Source: Myxococcales bacterium
GTDB taxonomy: Bacteria; Myxococcota; Myxococcia; Myxococcales; Anaeromyxobacteraceae
Reading direction: 5' to 3'
Assembly: GCA_038320275.1 (NCBI GenBank)
Contig: JBBQEB010000104.1
Location: forward strand, 1 to 13,782
DNA: 13,782 nt
This document shows, one piece after another, positions 2 to 13,176 of the stretch. The notes under the pieces were generated by a model. It was given only the letters and a program-made list of their open reading frames with translations, was not told the origin of the DNA and did no database searches. Within the stretch, counting starts at the first letter, position 1. The number at the start of each line of letters is the position of its first letter. Position numbers and translations under genes: made by a program.

Positions 2-1108
2 GAGCGGCGACTCGCGCTGGAGTCGGCGCTCTTCGAGAGGCTGCGGATGCGCGTGCTGGCGGAGGCGGCCCGGCAGCGCACCGCGGCGCGCGCGCTCGCC
101 ACGGCCGACGCGCTCCTGTCCTTGGCGAGGGTGGCGGTGGAGCGGGGGTACGTGCGACCGGAGGTGGACGGCGGGGAGGCGCTCGAGATCGTCGATGGGC
201 GCCATCCGGTGGTGGAGGCCATGCTGCCCGCCGACTCGGCTGGCTTCGTGCCCAACGATGTCGCGCTGGCGTCGTCGGCGCGCGGCGCGGGCCACGAGCG
301 GGTCGGCGAGCCGCTGCCGCAGCTCCTCGTCATCACCGGCCCCAACATGGCAGGCAAGAGCACCGTGCTGCGACAGACCGCGCTCGTGGTGCTGCTGGCG
401 CAGATGGGGAGCTTCGTCCCGGCGCGGCGGGCGCGGGTGGGGCTGGTGGACCGCATCTTCACGCGGGTGGGCGCCTCCGACGACCTCGCCCGCGGTCGCT
501 CCACCTTCATGGTGGAGATGACCGAGACGGCCGCCATCCTGCACAATGCCACCCGCCGCTCCCTGGTGGTGCTGGACGAGATCGGCCGGGGGACCTCCAC
601 CTTCGACGGCCTCTCCATCGCCTGGGCGGTCGCCGAGCACCTGCACGACGCGGTGGGCTGCCGGACCCTCTTCGCGACGCACTACCACGAGCTGCAGGAC
701 CTGGCGCGGGAGCGCCCGCGGGCGCGGAATCTCACGGTGGCGGTGCGGGAGGTCGGCGACGCGATCGTCTTCCTGCGCAAGCTGGTCCACGGCGGCGCGT
801 CCCGGAGCTACGGCATCGAGGTGGCGAAGCTGGCGGGGCTTCCTGCGGAGGTGCTCGCCCGGGCGCGGGAGATCTTGCACAACCTCGAGGCGCTGGAGGT
901 GGACGAGGCGGGTCATGCGGCGCTGGCGCGGGGAGGGCGCCGCGCCGGGCGCCGCGCGGCGGAGGTACAGCTCGGGCTCTTCGCCACCCCGGCCGACCCG
1001 CGGCAGGAGGCCGTGCTGCGCGAGCTGGGCGCGCTCGACCTCGACGCCGTGCGCCCGCTCGACGCGCTCAACCTCCTCGCGGGGTGGAAGAAGCGGCTCG
1101 GCCCGTGA
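2..1108 (+). CDS. mutS: DNA mismatch repair protein MutS, C-terminal ATPase region (5' part lies outside the window)
   Basis: The frame is open from base 2 ([16 protein letters not shown]...). It carries GRHPVVE, Walker [36 protein letters not shown], Walker [36 protein letters not shown] and a clamp-binding-like QLGLF near the C-terminus. Confidence 0.98.
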
Positions 1109-1941: not shown

Positions 1942-3381
1942 TCAGTGGGGACCGGCGCTCGGCCCGCCCGCCACATCGGGGACGATCCTCCGTCCGACCT
2001 CTTCACCGCCCGGCGAGGGGCGGTCGATCGACTGCGGGAGCTCGATCCAGAACACCGAGCCTGAGCCATCGCTCACGGCGGACCGGACCCCGACCCGCCC
2101 GCCATGCGCCTCGCACAGACGCTTCACGGTCGCGAGGCCCAGACCCAGGCCCTCTTTCCCGCGGGTGGGTCCCTCGCACGTAGGGGAGGAAGATCGCGTC
2201 CTCGCTTTCCGGCGGAATGCCCGGCCCCGTGTCCTCGACCTCCACGTGCACGACGCAATCGTGGACGGCCGCCCGGAGAGTGATTCGCCGGACTCCCGTG
2301 TCCCCCATGTACTTCATCGCGTTCTGCGTCAGGTTCGAGACGATGCTCGTGAGGACGCCAGCGTCGCACCGGACCCATGAGGGAGGGATGCCATCGACGC
2401 GCAGATCGATCCCAGCGCCCTCTGCCGCGGGTCTGATGCCGGCCGCGACGTCCTCGATCACGGCTGCGACATCGACGCTCGCATGGGGCTCGGGCTTCGC
2501 GCCGGCGCGTGCGAACTGGAGCAGCCCACCGACGATGCTTCGTATCCGCAGCAAGCTGCGCTGTGCGCGCGCGAGGAGCTCCCGCGCCCGCGCGTCTTCG
2601 ATGTCGCGCTTCTGGGCGAGGTCCAGCGACATCTGCACGGCCGCGACCGGGTTGAGGATGTCGTGGGCCGCGCGCGCCGCGAACATCTCGAGCTCGCGCG
2701 CTTTCGACTCCTCGAGGGCCGCGTGCTCCTCGGCGAGGGCGCCGAAGCGGCGCACACCACGCTGGGTCACGAATCCTGCGAGGATGGTGACGACCACGCA
2801 GCACGAGGTCAGCAGGTAGCCGATCCAGGTGGCGTCATGCCGGATCGACTTGATACGCAGGGCGAGGTCTCGGCCGTTCCGTGCATTGAATCGATCGCCT
2901 CCGAGCTGATCCTGGCGACGCGATCAGCGGCGGCCGCGACGGCGGGTAGGTCCGACCGCGCCGTCTGGAGGGATCCCGCGTCGAGCTGGGCGAGCGTGCG
3001 GTGAACGGTGCCGTCGAACCCGGCGATGGACTCGTTGAGCTCGCGCCAGAGGTCTTTCTCGCCGGGAAAGGTCCGCAGGAGGAGGTACGCGTTGGCCTCG
3101 TCCGCGAGGTGTGCGAGCGCCGGTGCCACAGCGGCACGATTCTTCGGCGTCCCCGAAGAAACGGCAGCATCGAGCAGAAACTCAGCGTGACGAACGGTGG
3201 TGCGAACTCCGGACAGCCGCTGGATGCTCGGCGCGGAGTTGAAGGCGATGTCGTCCGAGGCGGCATCGATCTGGGCCATCGCGCGCTGCGTGAAGATGTT
3301 GGCGGCGAAGAACGTCAGCGCGACGGCGACGAACGTTCCCATCATGAAGGGTACTTCGAGGCGCGAAGAAGTGTCGTGCAA
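1942..3381 (-). pseudogene. Membrane sensor histidine kinase split by two frameshifts (pseudogene or sequencing indels); ~479 aa if restored
   Basis: TTG start at 3381 with GAGG upstream. ORF 2809..3381 gives TM1 and a helical periplasmic domain. A shift at ~2890 gives FNARNGRDLALRIKSIRHDATWIGYLL (TM2), the H-box ELEMFAARAAHDILNP, N-box NLTQNAMKY and G1 VEDTGPGIP. A shift at ~2172 gives G2 GLGLGLATVKRLCEAHGG...GSVFWIELP, ending at the stop at 1942. Confidence 0.88.
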
Positions 3382-3561
3382 CGTCTACCTCGGATGCAGT
3401 CTCGCAACGTCCAAGCCGGCGACCGGCTCGCGAACGAGCGGCGTCTCGCTCCGGGTCGAGCGTGCACCACGAGCGCGGCGGACGACATGCCTCCCGCGCG
3501 TGTCGGGTGGCGCGGATGGGCTCTGGTCGATCCGTGGCCGGGTCGGGCGCAACACTCCAAG

Positions 3562-3605
3562 AGAATAGTTAGGACGCCTAACTTGAACAAGGCCCCGAGC
3601 ATGTC
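3562..3605 (-). promoter_or_regulatory. Leftward sigma70-like promoter with palindromic operator (copy A of a duplicated element)
   Basis: Minus strand reads TTGTTC (3590-3585), 17 bp, TATTCT (3567-3562). The spacer holds the inverted repeat AGTTAGG-acg-CCTAACT (3567-3583). Bases 3587-3605 are identical to 7929-7947. Confidence 0.7.
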
Positions 3606-5065
3606 GCCCCCGTCTCCGGGAGTCGATGGGACGATCCCTGCGGCGCCGGAGTGGACTCGATGGCGATCCGCTCGGGCTCGACCCTGCGGCCATCGAGAAG
3701 ATGAAGGCGCCCGTCTTGGTGCGGGTGATGGACGCCCTCGCGCACGACGCGCCCAAGGAGGACCTCGCCGCGGCAGTGCGCCGCTTCAACGAGGGCATGA
3801 CGCAGGCGCTCTCGCCCAAGGCGCGCGCGGTGGCGGAGGCGCGCTCCATGACGCCCGGAACGGTGGAGGCCATCGGCAGGCTCCTCGCCGGCGAGGGCGA
3901 CGCCACCCTGCGCGAGGTGATGCGGGACCGGCCGGAGGGGCTCATCGAGGCGCTCCGTCGCGACGGCATCATCAACGCCCAGAACCAGAGCTCGTGGCTC
4001 GCCGGCGGCCGGCTCACCGAAGAGGCGAAGGACCGGGTCGAGGGGATGTTCCTCGGTCGCGTGCTCGGCTCAGGGGACCGGATGGCGGCGACCTCGCCGG
4101 CGGTGCTGTCGAAGATCGAGCGCATCGCGCCCGAGCTGGTGCGCGTGGAGGGCGTGAACCCGGAGATGAATGAGGTGCCCACCGTCCAGGCTGCGATCGA
4201 CGTGATGAATGACGCCAAGCGGCGCGGGTTGACGGTGGAAGACCTCAACGCGCAGACCGGGCTCTTCGGCGGCGACCGGGTGCCGGCTGACGTGGCTGCG
4301 CTCGCGGGGCTCATCGAGACGGCGAAGCCAAAGGAGCTGCAGGCCCGGTTCAAGGCCTGGGCCGAGCTCGCGGCGCACGACCCGCGCCAGGCGACGATGT
4401 TCGCGCCGAACGCGACGCGGGAGGAGGCCCGGGCGGCTCTGCTGGAGGGGAAGGTTTCGGTGCCGGAGCGTGAGGCGTGGGCGCGCGAGCAGGCTTCGGC
4501 TGAGCTGGCCGCGAACCCGGAGCTGCTGCGCGCGGCGCAGCGGTCGAGGCTGGAGCAGCCCTCGCGGCTCGTGGAGATGGGGCCGGTCGAGCTCGACCCC
4601 GAGACGTCTATCCCGGCGCACGGCATCGAGCGCTCGGCCGAGCCGCTCACGCGCGAGAAGGTCGTCGAGGCGCTCAAGCAGCGGAGGGACGAAGAGGCGG
4701 CTCGGCGTGGCATCAAGCCGGGGAAGGGCGAGCAGGCCTGGGTGATCCGCAACGCGGACACCGGGTGGAACGTCGGCATCGGAACGGACGGCATCGCCGA
4801 GATGACCGCCAGTGGCGAGCACGAGGCGAACCTGCTGTCCGCCCTGAATATCGAGCCCCTCCTCGAGCGCGCGGTGCGGTCCGAAGCCCAGGAGCGGAAG
4901 CCGCACGAGGGGGAGGCGGAGCCGGACAAGAACATCCTCGCCTTCCACACGTTCTACGCGCCGGCCGTCATGGACGGCGTCCTCTACCGCGTGAAGATGC
5001 AGGTGAAGGAGACGCAGCACGGGAGAGGCTCCCATCTGCATCAGTATTCCGTGACGGCGCTGGAG

Positions 5066-5155
5066 GTGAAAGAGAGCCCGGCTCCCGGCGGTGGCCGCGG
5101 TGGCGTCGGTGAGGACACCAGGCAAGGCGCCTCGGGTCCGGTTGAGCCAGGCTCG
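5066..5155 (-). ncRNA. Candidate antisense hairpin sRNA 1 embedded in the phage ORF
   Basis: An 11-bp terminal stem pairs GAGCCUGGCUC with GAGCCGGGCUC (5154-5144 with 5084-5074). Its one imperfection is a U-G wobble only on the minus strand. Inner stems are CCGG/CCGG and GGUG-UCCU-CACC, followed by a UCUUUC tail. The stem begins 7 nt after a -10 box. Confidence 0.55.
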
Positions 5156-5161
5156 CCCATC

Positions 5162-5190
5162 AAGCTATCCCGTCTGCTGGCAGGCGCCAA
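5162..5190 (-). promoter_or_regulatory. Antisense sigma70-like promoter for candidate sRNA 1
   Basis: Minus strand reads TTGGCG (5190-5185), 17 bp, TAGCTT (5167-5162). Confidence 0.55.
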
Positions 5191-5340
5191 GCGGGAGGGT
5201 GGGGGCGAGTTCCTGTGGAGGCAGCGCTTCGAGCAGGGCGAGCGCCCGCCGCTCCCGGTGGAGCGCCGCGCGGACCAGTGGGGCGGTGGCGAGCGCGCCG
5301 TCTACACGAGGCCCGACGGCATCGAGATCCACGTCTCGCT

Positions 5341-5417
5341 GGAAATGAAACGCCCGGCGTTTCTAGACGACCGCGCCCCGGGACTAGGCCGGGGTGGCAA
5401 GCCGCTTACGCCGGGCA
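5341..5417 (-). ncRNA. Candidate antisense hairpin sRNA 2 embedded in the phage ORF
   Basis: A perfect 9-bp terminal stem pairs GCCCGGCGU with ACGCCGGGC (5416-5408 with 5360-5352). The middle stem GCGGCU/GGUCGU pairs via G-U only on the minus strand. The apical stem is CCCCGG-CCUAGUC-CCGGGG, followed by a GUUUCAUUUCC tail. The stem begins 6 nt after a -10 box. Confidence 0.6.
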
Positions 5418-5422
5418 GCACA

Positions 5423-5451
5423 AGCGTAAGGGACCTGCTCCGCGGACTCAA
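5423..5451 (-). promoter_or_regulatory. Antisense sigma70-like promoter for candidate sRNA 2
   Basis: Minus strand reads TTGAGT (5451-5446), 17 bp, TACGCT (5428-5423). Confidence 0.6.
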
Positions 5452-6776
5452 GCGCCGGAACAAGGAGCCATTCTTTCCGGAAGATTTCCCGGGGGATGCG
5501 CGTCACCTCGAGCAGGGCGGGCGGGCGCGCGAGCCCCTCCTGCAAGATGGCCCTGTGACCGGCAATCTGGTGCTCGAGTCGAAGGGCCGCCGGGACACCG
5601 GCCCGCGGGGCTACATGGAGTTCCAGGCCGTGCCCGCGGGCGAGCCGGTCCGCATCGACGTCCACCTCCTGCGCACCGCGGACAAGAGCACCCTCGCCCA
5701 CGAGCTCTTCCACGCCTTCTCGGTGGTGCTGGGCCAGGTGGCGACGCGCGAGGACGCCTCCCCGGAGGTCCGGGCGCAGTACCAGGGCCTGCTCGCCCTC
5801 ATGGGCTACGGCTCGCACGAGGAGCGCCTCTCCGCGCCGGACCGCGCCAAGGAGGAGAAGGCCTCGCACCTCTGGGAAATGTACCTCTCGGAAGGGAAAG
5901 CCCCGACGGCCGCGCTCGAGGGCGCCTTCACCCGCATGAAGCGCTGGCTCGTGCACAGCTACGGCGACTGGAAGGGCATCTCGAAGCAGTACGAGCAGGC
6001 CTACGGCCAGAAGCTCGAGCTCTCGGACGACGCGCGAGCGCTCTTCGACCGGCTCCTCGGTTCGGACCAGGCGGCAGAGGAAGCCGCGGTGGCGCACGAG
6101 CAGCGCCTTTTCACCCCGCTCTCGGCGCAGGAGCAAGTCCAAGACCGGGAGCTCTCGGCGGCGGGCCGCGCCGCGAGCTCGGACGAGATCCTCCGGGCCG
6201 CCGCTGCGGACGACGCCACCGAGCGCCGCCGCATTGCGCGCGAGGAAGGCCCGCGTCTTCGGGCCGAGGCGGAGGACGCCCTCAACCAGGACCCCGACAT
6301 GCGCGCGGTGGGGTTCCTTCAGACGGGCGAGATCCGGGGACATTCGCGCGAGGTGCTCGAGGCGGCCGGGCTCATCGACTCGGACGGGCGCCCGGTGAAG
6401 CTGTCCCGGGAGGACGCGCTCGCCGAGCTCGGCGCCGCCGGGGTCCGGGCGCTCCCTGCGGGCATCCTCGACCGCAAGGGCCACGGGCTCAAGGCGGACG
6501 ACCTCGCGGCCCGGCTCGGCTACGAGGACGGGCGCGCGCTGCTGCGCCAGCTCGCGGGCAAGGACTTCGACCGGGCGGCGCAGGACCTCGTCCGCCAGAA
6601 GCTCGAGGAGCGGTTCGGACCGGCGCTGCTCGACGACCCGGACCGGCTCCGCGACGTGGCGGCCGGGGCCTTCTCGAACGAGCCGGAGCTGAAGCGCATC
6701 TTCCTGCGGCTGGGGGCCATCGCGCGCGAGCTCGGGCCGTCGCTCGCCCGGCGCCTCGCCAGGCGGCCAGCGCGGG

Positions 6777-7139
6777 CTAAGGCACGCGACGCGCGAGCAC
6801 GTCGCGCAGCACGACCGCGCCGTTGTGCTCCTCGTCCCGTGCTCCGTAGACGAGCGTCATCGTCCCGACGACCGAGCGATGCGTCAGGTCCGCAAGCAGC
6901 GCCCGCGCCGGGCCGGCGCGGAGCTCCGCCCTGTAGCGTCGCGCGAACTCGCGGAACCGCTCGGGATCGTGGCCGAACCAGCGGCGCAGCTCAGGGCTCG
7001 GCGCGAGGTCCTTCGCCCACGCATCGAGCTCGAGCGCCTGCTTCCTCACGCCGCGCGGCCAGAGGCGATCGACGAGCACGCGGTACCCGTCGGTGCGCCC
7101 CGGCTTCTCGTAGGCTCGCTTGATCCGGACCATCGCCAT
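6777..7139 (-). CDS. DUF488 / YeaO-family protein (120 aa)
   Basis: Characteristic sequence VRIKRAYE...DGYRVLVDRLWPRGVRK...WAKDLAPSPELRRWFGHDPERF.EF..RY..EL...TLVYGARDEEHNGAVVL, with GAGG upstream of ATG 7139. Confidence 0.93.
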   Translation of the reverse strand: MAMVRIKRAYEKPGRTDGYRVLVDRLWPRGVRKQALELDAWAKDLAPSPELRRWFGHDPERFREFARRYRAELRAGPARALLADLTHRSVVGTMTLVYGARDEEHNGAVVLRDVLARRVP

Positions 7140-7236
7140 GTCGTGCCTCGAGCCTGGTGCCGTCGCGTCGGGCGACCCTTCGATCCCGCGGCGAGCGCTT
7201 CTCGGCAATCGCGCGAGGTCGTGGCCCCGGAGGCGC

Positions 7237-7896
7237 TCAGCCGGCGCGCACGAACCTCCCCCACGTTTCCTCGCGCTGTGCCTCGGATGCCTCCGCCTGC
7301 TCTGGGCAATCGAGGCGCAGGTCCCCGTCCGCGAGCGGCGCATCGATCGAGTCGCAGTGGTGCGGCAGCGGGCCGTCGTGGGTCCGGGGCCGGAAGTGCA
7401 CGCAGGTCACGCACATGCGGCTCGCCGGGATCTGGCGGTTCTCCTGGAGGGCGCGAATCACCTTCACGAGCGCGCCGAGGAATGCCTGCTGCTCGCCCGT
7501 CGGCAGGCTGGCGACCGCCGGCACGAGGAACTCGGACCAGGCACGCACCTTCGCGGCGCGCTTTCTCCCCGCGCCGGTGAGCTCGATCAGGCTCGCGCGC
7601 GGGTGGCGCACGTCCTGCCGTTTCGACGCCAACCCCTTCTCCACGAGCACGCGCGCCGAGTCGCTGATGGTCGGCAGCGTCACGCCGATTCGCCGGCCCA
7701 GCTCCGTCGCGGTGAGCGGTCCATCGGTCGCCAGCGCAGAGAGGATCTGGCCCTGGGTCGGGGACAGACTCAGCTCGCTGGCCGCAAGCCAGGTCTGGTA
7801 CCTGAGCACGAGGCCGATCTTGTGGAGCCCCGTCGCGATCCGCCGCTCGAGAGTCTCCGAGCTCGGATCGACCATCAGAAGTCTCGAGCGGGGCAT
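7237..7896 (-). CDS. MarR-family winged-helix regulator with C-terminal Cys-rich extension (start 7896, possibly leaderless; alternative 7875)
   Basis: LSPTQGQIL...TATELGRRIGVTLPTISDSARVLVEKGL......D.RASLIELTGAGR is a MarR winged HTH. The C-terminus MCVTCVHF...HHC...LRLDCPE contains four Cys. Confidence 0.92.
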   Translation of the reverse strand: MPRSRLLMVDPSSETLERRIATGLHKIGLVLRYQTWLAASELSLSPTQGQILSALATDGPLTATELGRRIGVTLPTISDSARVLVEKGLASKRQDVRHPRASLIELTGAGRKRAAKVRAWSEFLVPAVASLPTGEQQAFLGALVKVIRALQENRQIPASRMCVTCVHFRPRTHDGPLPHHCDSIDAPLADGDLRLDCPEQAEASEAQREETWGRFVRAG

Positions 7897-8850: not shown

Positions 8851-10287
8851 ATGCTCGCACCCCTCTGCGCTGCGCTTGCGCTTGCGCTGGCGCTGGCCGC
8901 GCCAGTCCGGGCGCCTTCATCCGGCCGGAGCCGGGCCGCCCGTCCGGTGGCGAGCCCAGCCGCGAGCTCGCTCGCGAGCGCCCGTGCGCTGCTCGAGGCG
9001 GTGAAGCGCGACCCCGTCCGGCGGCGCCACCGGGACGCCTGGGAGCGGGCCATCCTCGCCATGGAGGCGGCGGCGAAGGGTTCACAGCGCGCGCCCGCCT
9101 TGCTGGAGGCGGCACGCGCCCGGTACGCGCTCTACCGCTTCTCGCAGGTGGAGTCCGACCGCGCGGCGGCGCTCCGCCTCGCCGCAGAGGCGAGGGCCGC
9201 GGGAGCGAAGGAAGCCGGCGCGCTCGCCGCCGCCATTCGCAAGGAGATGGCCGGGAAGAGCCCCGCGCGGCCCAAGGCCCCCTCCACCCCGTCGCTCCCG
9301 CGTTTCGCCACGCCGCTCCCGCCTGCGCTCCCCCGGCCGGAGCCCTCTGCCGGTGCCGAGGAGGACGAGGAGGGCTCCATGGACCCTGTCCTGGAGCGCG
9401 CGCTGGCGGGGGAGGCCGACGATGGAGCGGCAGCGGGCGAGGCCGCGCCGCCAGCCGCCCGGACTGGAAAGGGAGTCGAGACTGCCGACGCCGCCGAAGA
9501 GGACGACGACGGCGGCGAAGGCGCGGCGGTGCTTCGCTCGCGCGGGCTGGGGGCGGAGCTCCCCGCCCGGCGGCCGGTGAGGCGGGTGGTGGTGGACGCG
9601 GGGCATGGCGGCCACGACACGGGCGCCATCGGCCCCAGCGGCGTGCGGGAGAAGGACGTCACCCTCGCCATGGCGCGGCGGCTGTCGCGCCAGCTCCGGG
9701 CCCGCGGCTTCGAGGTGGTGCTCACGCGCGACAGGGATGCTTACCTCGCGCTCGCGGAGCGCAGCGCAGCAGCCAATGCCCGCAAGGGCGACCTTCTCGT
9801 CTCGCTGCACGCCAACGCGCACCCGCGGCGGGACCAGCGCGGGGTGGAGACCTACGTTCTGAACGTCGCCGACGACCGCTACGCGGCGCGGCTGGCGGCG
9901 CGCGAGAATGGCGCCCTGGTGCGGTCGCGCCGCCCGGGCGGCGGCGGAGCGGTGGTGCGCCACATCCTCGCCGACCTGGAGGCGAAGTCGAGCGCGGAGG
10001 CCTCGCGCAAGCTCGCCGTGCTGGTGCAGCGCGAGGTCTGCACCGGTGTGCGGGAGAAGGTGGGCGAGGTGCGCGACCTCGGCGTGAAGAGCGCGCTCTT
10101 CCACGTCCTCCTCGGCGCGCGCATGCCGGCGGTCCTGGTGGAGACCTCCTTCATCTCCAATCGCGAGGACGAGCGGCGGCTCGCGAGCAGCCGCTTCCAG
10201 GAGGAGGTCGCGGCCAGCATCGCGAGGGCAGTGTCGCGCTTCGCGGAGCGGGAGGCGCGCGACGCAAGGGTGGCGCTGGCCAGGTGA
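8851..10287 (+). CDS. N-acetylmuramoyl-L-alanine amidase (Amidase_3, AmiA/AmiC-like)
   Basis: An N-terminal signal sequence, a helical region and a low-complexity linker precede the catalytic motifs VVVDAGHGGHDTGAIG, EKDVTL, LTRDRD, SLHANA and MPAVLVETSFISN. Confidence 0.95.
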   Translation: MLAPLCAALALALALAAPVRAPSSGRSRAARPVASPAASSLASARALLEAVKRDPVRRRHRDAWERAILAMEAAAKGSQRAPALLEAARARYALYRFSQVESDRAAALRLAAEARAAGAKEAGALAAAIRKEMAGKSPARPKAPSTPSLPRFATPLPPALPRPEPSAGAEEDEEGSMDPVLERALAGEADDGAAAGEAAPPAARTGKGVETADAAEEDDDGGEGAAVLRSRGLGAELPARRPVRRVVVDAGHGGHDTGAIGPSGVREKDVTLAMARRLSRQLRARGFEVVLTRDRDAYLALAERSAAANARKGDLLVSLHANAHPRRDQRGVETYVLNVADDRYAARLAARENGALVRSRRPGGGGAVVRHILADLEAKSSAEASRKLAVLVQREVCTGVREKVGEVRDLGVKSALFHVLLGARMPAVLVETSFISNREDERRLASSRFQEEVAASIARAVSRFAEREARDARVALAR

Positions 10288-10404
10288 GGGGGCGAAACGC
10301 GGTTTGCAGGGCTCACGCGTCGAGGGCTTCGCGGGCCGAGAGCGACGCCGCGGCATGGTGCCCGATCCTTTCCGCCCCCCGGAGGCGCCGCTAGCCCAGG
10401 GGCG

Positions 10405-13176
10405 ATGCTCCTCTCGACCTCCAGCGCCGCCGTGCTCCCCCAGCCGCCTCCTTACGAGCTCGAGCGGCGCCTGCCCGAGCTTCCGCCGCTCACCGGAGAC
10501 CTCAAGGCCGACCTGGCCGCGGGCCGCCGCTTCGTGGAGGACCTGCACCGTGGGGGCGCGAGCGGGCACACCGTGGTCCGGCTCCAGAGCGCGGCCATGG
10601 ACCGCATCGTGGTGGCGCTCTGGGAGCGGGCGCTCGCCGCCGCGGCCGAGCACTACGGCCCGGCGCCGCTCGCGCTCGTCGCCATCGGCGGCTACGGGAG
10701 GCGCGAGCTCGCCCCGTTCAGCGACCTCGATCTGCTCCTCCTGCACGAGGCTGGGGCGCCCAAGGACTTCGCCAGGGAGGCGAGCGAGCGGTTCGTGTAC
10801 GCGCTCTGGGACCTGAAGCTCGAGGTGGGCTACGGGGTGCGCGACCTCGCCGGCTGCGAGGAGCTCGCGAGGGAGGACCACACCGCGCGCACGGCGCTCC
10901 TCGACCTGCGCCCGCTCGCCGGGGACCGCGGGCTCTACAAGGAGCTCGAGCGCGAACAGCTCCACGGGCTCTCCCAGGTGCGGGTCGACGCCTTCGTGGC
11001 AGACAAGATCGCCGAGACGCGCGAGCGGCGGGAGAAGTACGGCGACTCGCTCTACCTCCTCGAGCCCAACGTGAAGCAGTCGGAGGGCGGGCTGCGGGAT
11101 CTACAGTCGGCGCTCTGGATCGCGCGCGCCCGCTGGAAGGTGGCCGGCATCACCGAGCTGCTCGCCCGCGCCATCCTGCCCGACCGCGAGATCCGCGACC
11201 TGCGCCACGCGCGCGACTTCCTCTGGCGCGTGCGCAACGAGATCCACTACGTCGCTGGCCGCAAGTCCGACCACCTCACCTTCGACGTCCAGCCCCAGGT
11301 GGCCGCCTTCCTCGGGTATGCGGACGCCAAGGAGGGCAGCGGAGTGGAGGCGTTCATGCGCCACTACTACCTGGCCGCGAAGGTCGTCCTCACCGCCAGC
11401 GACGCCATCGTCGACCGCGCGCTCGAGGCCCAGAGCACCACCGGCTGGAGACAGGTGCCTCCGCCAGCGGCGCTGTCCGGCGCCGAGCGGCGCCCGCCAT
11501 CCTCCCGCGACGCGTGGTCTCTCGCGGGCGGCGAGCTCAAGGTGTTCCGGGGCCGGCTCACCGTGTCCGACAGCGAGGTGCTGCGCCGCTCTCCGGCGGC
11601 GCTGGTGCGCCTCTTCGCCACGGCCGACCGGGAAGGGCTCGAGCTCTACCCGTACGCCCGCGACCTCGCCACCGCCGCCGCCGCCGAGCTTCCGCCCGAG
11701 GCCGCCGAGGACCGGGAGATGAACCAGGAGCTCCTGGCCTGCTTCACGCGGCCGGGGACGCGCGGCCGGTTCCTGTCCCTCATGCACCAGCTCGGGGTGC
11801 TGGCCCGGCTCATGCCCGAGTTCGCGCACGTCACCGCGCGCCGCCAGATCGACGTCTACCATGTGTACACGGTCGACGTTCACCTGCTCTTCGCGCTGCG
11901 GCGGCTGTTCGCGCTGCGCGCGGGCGACGTGCAGGAGGAGACGGTCGGCCCGCTCATGCGGCAACTGGAGCGACCCCTCTCCGTCTACCTGGGAACGCTC
12001 TTCCACGACATCGGCAAGGGGCTCGGCGGTGACCACTCGGTGCGGGGCGCCGAGATCGCGGGGCGCGCCTGCGTGCGCATGGGCATCGATCCGCCGGACG
12101 CTGCGGACGTGGAGTGGCTCGTCACGAAGCACCTGCGCATGAGCGCCATCGCGCAGCGGCGCGACCTCTCCGATCCCGACCTCATCCATGCCTTCGCGGA
12201 GGAGTGCGGCTCGGTGGACAGGCTCGACCAGCTCTACCTCCTCACCTACGCGGACATCGCGACGGTGGGCCCACGGACCTGGACCGACTGGAAGGCGCGC
12301 CTGTTGCGCGAGCTGTACGGCAAGACGCGCGCGGCGCTCCTCGAGGGCACTTCCCGCAGGGTGGAGCCTGGCACCGCCGAGTCGGTGTCGCGCGCGCGCG
12401 TGGCCGGCGAGCTCGCGGGTCGAGCATCGGCGAGCCGGGCCGCCCGATTCCTGGCGGGGATGCCGGCGCGCTACTTCCTCACCGTCGAGCCCAGCGCGGC
12501 CCCGCGCCACCTCCGCCTCCTCGGCATCGCCCGGAGCATGTCCTTCGCGACGGCCATCCATCACCGCCGGGAGCTCGGCATCTCGGAGCTCACGCTCACC
12601 GCCCCCGACCGGCCAGGTTTGCTGGCGCTGGTGGCCGGGGTGCTCTCCGCGCACCGCATCGACGTCCAGCACGCGGAGGTGTTTTCCACCGCTGCCGACG
12701 AGCGCTCGCTCGGTTGGCTGTCGTCGCGGGCGCTGGACCTCTTCGAGTTGCGCGGTCCAGAAGGGGGAGCCATCGACCCCTCTCGCTGGCGGGCGGCGCG
12801 CCGGGACCTCGCGCGCGTGCTCACGGGGGAGGAGTCGCTGGACAGCTTGCTCGCTCGCAAGCTGAAGGCCTCGTCCATCCCGCCCCGCCCGCTGCCTGGC
12901 GTCTCCACCAAGGTCGTCATCGACAACGACGCCTCACGCACCCACAGTGTCATCGACGTCTTCTGTGCCGATCGGGTGGGGCTCCTGTACACGCTCTCCC
13001 GTGCCTGTTTCGAGCTGGGGCTCTCCGTCGATCTGGCCCGCATCTCCACCGAGGGACACCGGGCCGCCGACGCCTTCTACGTGCGCTCGGGAGACGCGAC
13101 CCGGCTCGAAGGTGAGCGTGCAAAACGGGTGACGGAGGCGCTCCGGACGGCGCTGGGCGGGACGTCCCCGCCGTAG
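10405..13176 (+). CDS. glnD: [Protein-PII] uridylyltransferase / uridylyl-removing enzyme
   Basis: NTase motif AIGGYGRRELAPFSDLDLL, LEPNVKQSEGGLRD, HVYTVDVH, HD domain LFHDIGKG and two C-terminal ACT domains (DRPGLL, DRVGLL). Confidence 0.98.
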   Translation: MLLSTSSAAVLPQPPPYELERRLPELPPLTGDLKADLAAGRRFVEDLHRGGASGHTVVRLQSAAMDRIVVALWERALAAAAEHYGPAPLALVAIGGYGRRELAPFSDLDLLLLHEAGAPKDFAREASERFVYALWDLKLEVGYGVRDLAGCEELAREDHTARTALLDLRPLAGDRGLYKELEREQLHGLSQVRVDAFVADKIAETRERREKYGDSLYLLEPNVKQSEGGLRDLQSALWIARARWKVAGITELLARAILPDREIRDLRHARDFLWRVRNEIHYVAGRKSDHLTFDVQPQVAAFLGYADAKEGSGVEAFMRHYYLAAKVVLTASDAIVDRALEAQSTTGWRQVPPPAALSGAERRPPSSRDAWSLAGGELKVFRGRLTVSDSEVLRRSPAALVRLFATADREGLELYPYARDLATAAAAELPPEAAEDREMNQELLACFTRPGTRGRFLSLMHQLGVLARLMPEFAHVTARRQIDVYHVYTVDVHLLFALRRLFALRAGDVQEETVGPLMRQLERPLSVYLGTLFHDIGKGLGGDHSVRGAEIAGRACVRMGIDPPDAADVEWLVTKHLRMSAIAQRRDLSDPDLIHAFAEECGSVDRLDQLYLLTYADIATVGPRTWTDWKARLLRELYGKTRAALLEGTSRRVEPGTAESVSRARVAGELAGRASASRAARFLAGMPARYFLTVEPSAAPRHLRLLGIARSMSFATAIHHRRELGISELTLTAPDRPGLLALVAGVLSAHRIDVQHAEVFSTAADERSLGWLSSRALDLFELRGPEGGAIDPSRWRAARRDLARVLTGEESLDSLLARKLKASSIPPRPLPGVSTKVVIDNDASRTHSVIDVFCADRVGLLYTLSRACFELGLSVDLARISTEGHRAADAFYVRSGDATRLEGERAKRVTEALRTALGGTSPP

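Follow-up and report, generated by a model that had tools for sequence, protein, structure and literature searches.

Can a protein domain carry, on the opposite strand of its own coding sequence, the gene of a small RNA that belongs to it? The question is raised by a 13 782-nucleotide (nt) stretch of a Myxococcales genome (hereafter the window; it is the whole of contig C104, JBBQEB010000104.1, in the 4.1-Mb, 91% complete assembly GCA_038320275.1). The window contains a piece of a phage polyvalent-protein gene that encodes an LPD3 domain, and antisense to this fragment lie two units, each composed of a promoter, a hairpin and a U-rich tail. A preliminary description of the sequence had proposed that a nuclease-like domain is paired here with a small RNA of its own, expressed at times when the host gene is silent. 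Synonymous-site conservation and covariation among homologues support this proposal, and the arrangement proves to be real and widespread and, apparently, undescribed.

Both units are on the minus strand. The sigma70-type promoter of unit 1, TTGGCG-17-TAGCTT (5162–5190; −35 at 5190–5185, −10 at 5167–5162, predicted start at 5155), overlaps the codons of the LPD3 tail helix IKLSRLLAGAK. It is followed by a hairpin of about 81 nt (5074–5154), which corresponds on the plus strand to a linker within the domain, and by the tail UCUUUC (5068–5073), which recurs in homologues and is the reverse complement of the E-V-K-E codons closing the LPD3 core. Unit 2 has the promoter TTGAGT-17-TACGCT (5423–5451; −35 at 5451–5446, −10 at 5428–5423, predicted start near 5416–5417), a 65-nt hairpin (5352–5416) and the tail GUUUCAUUUCC at 5351–5341; its promoter overlaps a second tail motif, TSVRDLLRGLK, which matches the tail of the LPD3 profile. 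All these elements stand where the preliminary description had placed them, and the plus-strand frame 3626–7123 of the open reading frame (ORF) list is open across both units. The position directly behind an LPD3 domain holds for unit 1, which ends the domain, but not fully for unit 2, which is preceded by about 35 codons (5236–5340, plus strand) without an LPD3 core and without any homologue found. This spacer may be left over from a module that was deleted or duplicated; tandem tail duplications exist in homologues, for example L148. A weak search found no homologue of the unit 2 segment.

Compared with dinucleotide shuffles, unit 1 folds with z −3.5 on the minus strand and −1.05 on the plus strand, and unit 2 with z −2.89 and −2.41, respectively; the strand preference is clear for unit 1 only and slight for unit 2. 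The G–U pairs said to work on the minus strand alone are present there (5149/5079, 5117/5104, 5402/5370 and 5400/5372), but the plus-strand folds have G–U pairs of their own, three in unit 1 and one in unit 2. Codons for Ile, Val or Leu that end in TA are rare in 3626–6770 (4 of 198), and two of these four form the two −10 boxes.

The LPD3 core (Pfam PF18798; 4742–5026, plus strand, amino acids 373–467) is recognized with E 1e-15 and 58.1 bits, against a gathering cut-off of 27, and is predicted to adopt a BECR-like alpha/beta fold. Its conserved His, in the 4946–4948 region (AFHTFYAP), is near-invariant in LPD3 (131/138) and lies at the start of a strand, not in the N-terminal helix. In the AlphaFold model (predicted local distance difference test score, pLDDT, 77), the core and the tail helix are confident, and the linker between them, which the unit 1 hairpin encodes, has low confidence (model residues 151–164, pLDDT below 50). 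A wide fold search ranks structures of CdiA-CT, BrnT, RelE and ParE first (Z 4.6–5.5); 12 of the top 13 matches are toxin–antitoxin or contact-dependent growth inhibition toxin structures, and several alignments extend into the tail. Matches in the ESM Atlas are LPD3 clusters only, and a sequence search of the PDB gave none below E 0.6. The model suggests that LPD3 is a BECR fold with an RNA gene inside one of its loops. The prediction of a BECR-type RNase fold for LPD3 had been presented as established; the best Z for it here is a modest 5.5, and Iyer 2017 (PMC5512222; for this and the papers cited below we refer to the accessible parts of the source) lists LPD3 separately from the PBECR domains and does not call it BECR. 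According to the same source, BECR-type domains occur in up to 26% of polyvalent proteins and their targets are unknown.

Nearly all of 125 homologous proteins continue behind the core with E-I-E-(K/N)-P, 20–40 variable residues and x-S-I-x-x-L-L-x-G-V-K. Broad alignments diverged too far to serve as seeds for locus searches, and the DNA was fetched instead with an alignment of a subfamily and with degenerate core-residue patterns; the patterns avoid the promoter positions and bias the sample toward domains having the core residues. There are 73 distinct domains: the window copy, which was set aside, 14 without an in-frame tail by protein score and 58 with a tail, reduced to 48 loci once near-duplicates were removed. 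The unpublished genome G402 (L081) contributes a single row to these 48, to the 80 of the fold alignment and to the three valS genomes; no claim depends on it alone, and G758 was excluded from the analyses.

Read on the opposite strand, the tail of the homologous loci is TTGAC(A/G)-17-TATACT. The codon at −10 is NTA in 38 of 45 cases, where 6.3 would be expected from the same ORF; at the other promoter positions Ser is encoded by AGT in 26 of 32 cases (4.0 expected) and Val by GTC in 24 of 27 (8.0 expected). Codon choice at four control positions in the spacer is at expectation. The choice of codons at the promoter positions of the tail thus points to selection on the DNA. The variable linker is a closed hairpin of 55–85 nt that starts a few bases past the −10 and ends in UUUUCUAU-like, often imperfect, tails. 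It is more stable on the minus than on the plus strand in 48 of 50 homologues, and its z is below −2 in 25 of 50, compared with 0 of 100 control segments. Codon choice and folding show that promoter and hairpin are under selection at the DNA or RNA level in this family, and the conserved antisense promoter and covarying hairpin anticipated behind homologous LPD3 domains are found. There are tandem hairpins in L013, L024, L035, L044, L067, L074, L085 and L099, and also in L148. Five LPD3 loci (L055, L056, L057, L080 and L084) lie in one Nitrospirae assembly, and further dispersed copies are L051, L053, L060, L061, L065, L068, L069, L077 and L079; some of the dispersed copies in Magnetominusculus-type genomes are stand-alone or stop-broken, with near-consensus promoters.

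A detector of the unit was trained on the 48 homologues, with the window excluded and MuF-C domains absent from the training set; 30 proteins were scanned with Pfam and 28 used. It detects a unit behind 20 of 29 BECR-type domains and behind none of 32 domains of other types. The positives are 17 of 23 LPD3 (a partly circular figure) and 3 of 4 MuF-C domains, with 0 of 1 for PBECR1 and 0 of 1 for PBECR3; a looser scan did find a unit after the single PBECR3, and the six LPD3 cases missed include the gonococcal one described below. Mu gp30, called inactive in Iyer 2017 (PMC5512222), has no unit (n = 1). Promoter and hairpin travel with BECR-type domains, in the middle of coding sequences for proteins of 1000–4000 amino acids and in valS and carB; the hosts of the module are portal, MuF and polyvalent proteins, ValRS and CarB. 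In the window, unit 1 scores 11.3, and the host genome has six hits of at least 11 in 8.19 M strand-nt. The best hit of that genome (G000 contig C340, about 570–675, plus strand) has TTGGCA-17-TATCGT, a 70-nt closed hairpin and a U-tail; it is apparently intergenic, without an LPD3 domain, and is a candidate stand-alone small RNA. In L016/L017, LPD3 is fused to a phage portal; the next gene (4906–7080) encodes a Hint-domain/DUF559 protein, and a further unit lies near 7825 behind a WLLTAFE-type domain.

Published start sites show that the unit is transcribed in two lysogens. A gonococcal prophage gene has LPD3, the hairpin and TTGCAA-17-TATCAT. NgncR_132, an antisense RNA in NGFG_04208 with its primary start at 1122204 and an annotated length of 309 nt, reaches 604 reads per kilobase per million (RPKM), against 4.5 for the sense gene (Remmele 2014, PMC4176332). 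Located via a capsid-gene anchor and not in the MS11 sequence itself, its start maps 7 nt behind the predicted −10; the distance from anchor to −10 is 3288 nt in three of four gonococcal loci, and in L111 a 10-nt insertion moves the mapping from the downstream anchor to −3. (The gonococcal L111 record, NZ_CP119140, 2.17 Mb long, is classed as a plasmid but is evidently a chromosome.) An upstream anchor was dropped as length-polymorphic (4549–4665 nt), and NGFG_01087/NgncR_145, a haemagglutinin gene, was rejected as the gonococcal unit. A second RNA, smRNA6, recovered from a 50–250-nt fraction, is antisense to NGO1092 (McClure 2014, PMC4148029); with the coordinates of Piekarowicz 2007 (PMC1931599) it starts at +9.

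The second case is the Stx2 phage gene L0134/ECs1242 of prophage Sp5, where TTGCGA-17-TATTTT and a 66-nt hairpin were predicted after MuF-C before the published table of start sites was looked up. The sequence printed upstream of the antisense start 1301472 is the predicted promoter, with the start at +7; its enrichment of 24 is the highest of the four starts in ECs1242 (Sy 2020, PMC7547250). EcOnc36, an Hfq peak in five datasets for which no Northern size is given, lies at the same site (Tree 2014, PMC4104026). The Stx-phage unit occurs in 182 phage records, and a phi24B preprint reports the homologous giant protein in virions. The coupling of domain and RNA put forward in the preliminary description is borne out both by the association with BECR-type domains and by these antisense starts in two silent prophage genes.

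LPD3 and its unit also reside, in frame, within valyl-tRNA synthetase (ValRS) in Verrucomicrobia and CarB in Acidobacteria. The gene bearing the module is the only valS found (3/3 genomes) or the only carB found (2/2 genomes). LPD3 is present in 23 of 201 genomes of the Verrucomicrobia order with the valS insertion and in 3 of 151 genomes of the carB family; 28 of 29 domain hits examined are in ValRS, at two insertion sites, one of which has 26–103 unrelated residues in relatives. In the phylogenetic tree, all 25 valS copies form one clade (support 0.998) in which the two sites are intermixed, the carB copies form a separate clade, and the window groups with L002 and L003. The module has in-frame mobility. 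Some ValRS proteins contain two LPD3–RNA modules (L121/L078, G401 C56 at about 9700–10800; L135, L147 and L148); the second copy in L078 includes flanking ValRS residues of the other site, which suggests recent copying of the module within the gene.

The valS RNAs were aligned in 25 rows after one row with a misplaced tail had been dropped. There, 91.9% of the cells pair (39–48% in slid controls), 16 of 24 pairs show two-sided change, none of 500 shuffles reaches the score, and RNAalifold gives the same stems. The apical loops vary; in the basal internal loop the synonymous sites show no variation (CCT 24/24, GCA 18/18, TCT 16/16 and GGT 19/19, with 1.4–3.0 expected); the −35 is retained (GTC 25/25). 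A covariance model of this clade does not find the units of the window and gives one strong outside hit in 53 sources, so that the primary sequence is specific to the clade.

We consider it about an even chance that the antisense-nested RNA binds and inhibits the putative nuclease, as an RNA ligand or antitoxin. In this account LPD3, and likewise MuF-C and some PBECR domains, carries an RNA gene antisense to a flexible loop and the last helix, made of a constitutive sigma70 promoter and a closed, bulged 60–85-nt hairpin RNA with a terminal U-tract. The RNA would bind the domain via the conserved internal loop and hold it inactive in the producing cell, in the manner of a type III antitoxin; the domain would gain activity when the RNA is missing, either because the virion has delivered the domain to a new host or because RNA synthesis has ceased. 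With the antidote gene nested in it, the domain could enter virion proteins and even essential enzymes by in-frame shuffling without killing its carrier. On this explanation, the cognate RNA gene of the window would be unit 1, and unit 2, which lacks a domain, would be a surplus copy. A stronger form, which we hold only tentatively, is a self-immunising mobile domain: an RNase that encodes its own antisense RNA antidote in a loop, so that a single insertion brings both toxin and antitoxin.

Several observations weigh against this explanation, and some of them would fit an artefact of GC-rich sequence and conserved protein motifs. In the window, each promoter agrees with the consensus at only 7 of 12 bases, a stock promoter scan of 3400–7300 gave 0 promoters, and the two hairpins are individually not significant against synonymous-codon resampling (z −0.4 and −0.5), a control proposed in the preliminary description; unit 2 has the domain tail without a core, and its detector score of 5.7 is reached 52 times in the host genome (6.3 per Mb). 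The homologous rows are kin, so that P values overstate. Among the valS copies, codon-resampling z is weak (median −0.5; 5/26 below −2), just 10 of 24 keep the first −10 base, and the RNA is retained in the 5 of 26 that are without the conserved His. Foldseek found no match at E ≤ 0.001, the best fold match (Z just 5.5) has a root mean square deviation of 3.2 over 85 residues, and ParE-type BECR folds are not RNases (PMC11980606). As to the transcripts, NgncR_132 as annotated extends far beyond the U-tract, smRNA6 gave no Northern signal (McClure 2014, PMC4148029), and the Hfq-bound EcOnc36 peak is also compatible with an ordinary small RNA. An artefact is nevertheless very improbable: synonymous-site bias, covariation and the Sp5 start site largely refute it for the family, and domain specificity and the second published start site also speak against it. 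It could still apply to unit 2 as a decayed copy.

The RNA might instead be a safety catch acting in cis, in which read-through RNA or polymerase collision stops leaky mRNA of the toxic domain and the hairpin serves as a stabiliser or leaky terminator. A promoter oriented toward the domain, the imperfect U-tails, the Hfq association of EcOnc36 and a 309-nt NgncR_132 that would span the LPD3 coding region of a nearly silent gene all agree with this. The unit is, however, retained within essential valS and carB, where silencing of the mRNA would be costly; this favours an RNA ligand or antitoxin over antisense silencing, although the −10 decay there could be accommodation. Covarying stems and an invariant internal loop favour it too, since a closed hairpin of this kind is unnecessary for pairing in cis, and one 5′ end comes from a 50–250-nt gel fraction. 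Of the roles originally considered (antitoxin, processing substrate or antisense regulator), the last is weakened by the valS and carB insertions, and we regard silencing in cis as rather unlikely. A little less probable still is a role of the RNA as payload: made in the lysogen, it would act in trans as a decoy or regulator, for example against BECR domains that an incoming phage delivers or against a defence protein of the host, and the domain would be its chaperone, processing enzyme or hitch-hiking carrier. Units without a core (unit 2, the tandem hairpins of homologues) and the His-less valS copies would suit such a role. Against it stand the 0 of 32 non-BECR domains with a unit, apical loops that are not conserved and a host genome in which the best complementary target is 19 nt, with no long one.

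It is improbable, finally, that the hairpin serves as a signal or substrate for mobility, like those of repetitive extragenic palindromic (REP) or miniature inverted-repeat transposable (MITE) elements, by which the domain copies the module in frame, transcription being incidental. The range of hosts (portal, MuF and polyvalent proteins, ValRS at two sites with intermixed labels in the tree, CarB in a separate clade) and the five loci in one Nitrospirae assembly fit such an element. The 26 valS modules, however, have no hairpin at their 5′ junction (median z −0.33 and +1.14), hence no palindromes at both ends; the single valS clade means one entry; the G–U pairs and the promoter fit an RNA; and the fold search showed no transposase or reverse transcriptase fold.

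The explanation by an RNA ligand or antitoxin brings the module closest to the type III toxin–antitoxin systems (ToxIN, TenpIN, CptIN) and AbiF/RCd22 (PMC12373285), with which it shares a putative RNase, a cognate structured non-coding RNA, phage association and the occurrence of tandem extra RNA copies. The RNA gene described here differs in that it runs antisense within the 3′ part of the coding sequence of the toxin-like domain itself, has its own promoter, and consists of one closed hairpin and not of an upstream co-directional repeat array; the window has no repeats of that kind. The folds of ToxN and AbiF differ from the BECR-like fold predicted here. The system probably works like a type III antitoxin, from which it departs in layout and in Rfam: the ToxI, CptI, TenpI and AbiF models, like the rest of Rfam, have no relevant match in the window or 20 homologous loci. 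The same search fails to bear out the suggested likeness to the C4 RNA of P1/P7 and the CI RNA of P4. Like these and the type I antitoxins, the present RNAs are small structured phage RNAs of the lysogen, but they have no target boxes, and the unit of the window is mid-gene, about 1.5 kb from the ORF start, with no overlap of a translation start. An excess of antisense RNA over silent mRNA, typical of type I and cis-antisense systems, is found in the gonococcal homologue.

Inteins and Rickettsia palindromic elements are in-frame mobile inserts in essential proteins. The present module resembles them in its open-frame insertion into tolerant loops and its palindromic DNA; it differs in having no Hint motif (none in Pfam scans of the LPD3 module) and in comprising a full toxin-like domain and a promoter-bearing RNA gene. 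PBECR, MuF-C and LPD3 domains, of which the window protein has a Pfam member, have been described as shuffled, virion-packaged predicted RNases (Iyer 2017, PMC5512222); the accessible main text of that account has no mention of antisense, small or non-coding RNA and describes neither an RNA partner nor insertion into valS or carB. The main text of a 2026 preprint on BECR classification has no mention of LPD, antisense or polyvalent. NgncR_132 and smRNA6 of Neisseria gonorrhoeae and EcOnc36 of enterohaemorrhagic Escherichia coli Sp5, whose entries coincide with the 5′ end of the unit in two prophages, are catalogued in the accessible reports without structure, family, function or link to a BECR domain. 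We found no description of an antisense RNA gene nested in a BECR-type domain in the openly accessible literature covered, and the preliminary description likewise knew of none. The arrangement would be categorically new if the self-immunising mobile domain holds, and otherwise, under the explanation we favour, a variant of RNA-antitoxin-like systems.

The window also encodes MutS and a MarR regulator (Pfam) and what we take to be GlnD-like and amidase-like proteins. The host gene had been called a phage polyvalent-protein gene; homology supports this, but 3626–6770 (plus strand) is a truncated piece of such a gene amid housekeeping genes, with no visible prophage. The homology of the frame 3626–7123 stops near 6740. 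From 6770 to 7143 the frame overruns the end of a minus-strand gene, presumably YeaO/DUF488-like, and the last 115 codons or so of the 1165-amino-acid ORF are probably not real protein. Of the relatives, 4 of 91 at family level and 0 of 10 at genus level have matches to the fragment; no second copy was found elsewhere in the host genome, and searches with the single protein against viral contigs and named phages found no homologue. A contig from one DNA run, which may be the source sample of the window, spans the left junction. Adjoining that side is a sensor-kinase-like gene (2003–3381, minus strand, by sequence reading) in the overlapping frames 2809–3381 and 2003–2797, apparently frameshifted. 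Behind the units, 5640–5960 (plus strand) has an HExxH motif (AHELFH) and 54% identity to the relative G380, with no Pfam match; it is presumably a Zincin-like metallopeptidase region, a label that follows the architectures of Iyer 2017. The gene of the closest relative (L002/L185, G380 C31) has a frameshift past the LPD3 tail and before the peptidase region, but the hairpin and the promoter TTGCCG-17-TATCGT are retained.

It is an open question in the field by what means a phage can produce an RNase for its virions and leave the producing cell unharmed, and a nested RNA antidote would answer it. Such an antidote would extend RNA-antitoxin biology by one toxin fold and one gene layout, both new, assign the orphan RNAs NgncR_132 and EcOnc36 to a family and a function, make the recurring S-I-x-x-L-L-x-G-V-K protein motif partly a promoter, and open a route for toxin-like domains into essential enzymes. 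If the domain is indeed self-immunising, the virion proteins of these phages would hold a weapon armed only at injection, to which lysogens would be immune, as would hosts in which orphan RNA units like unit 2 persist; the module in ValRS and CarB would be an addiction or abortive-infection device joined to an essential enzyme.

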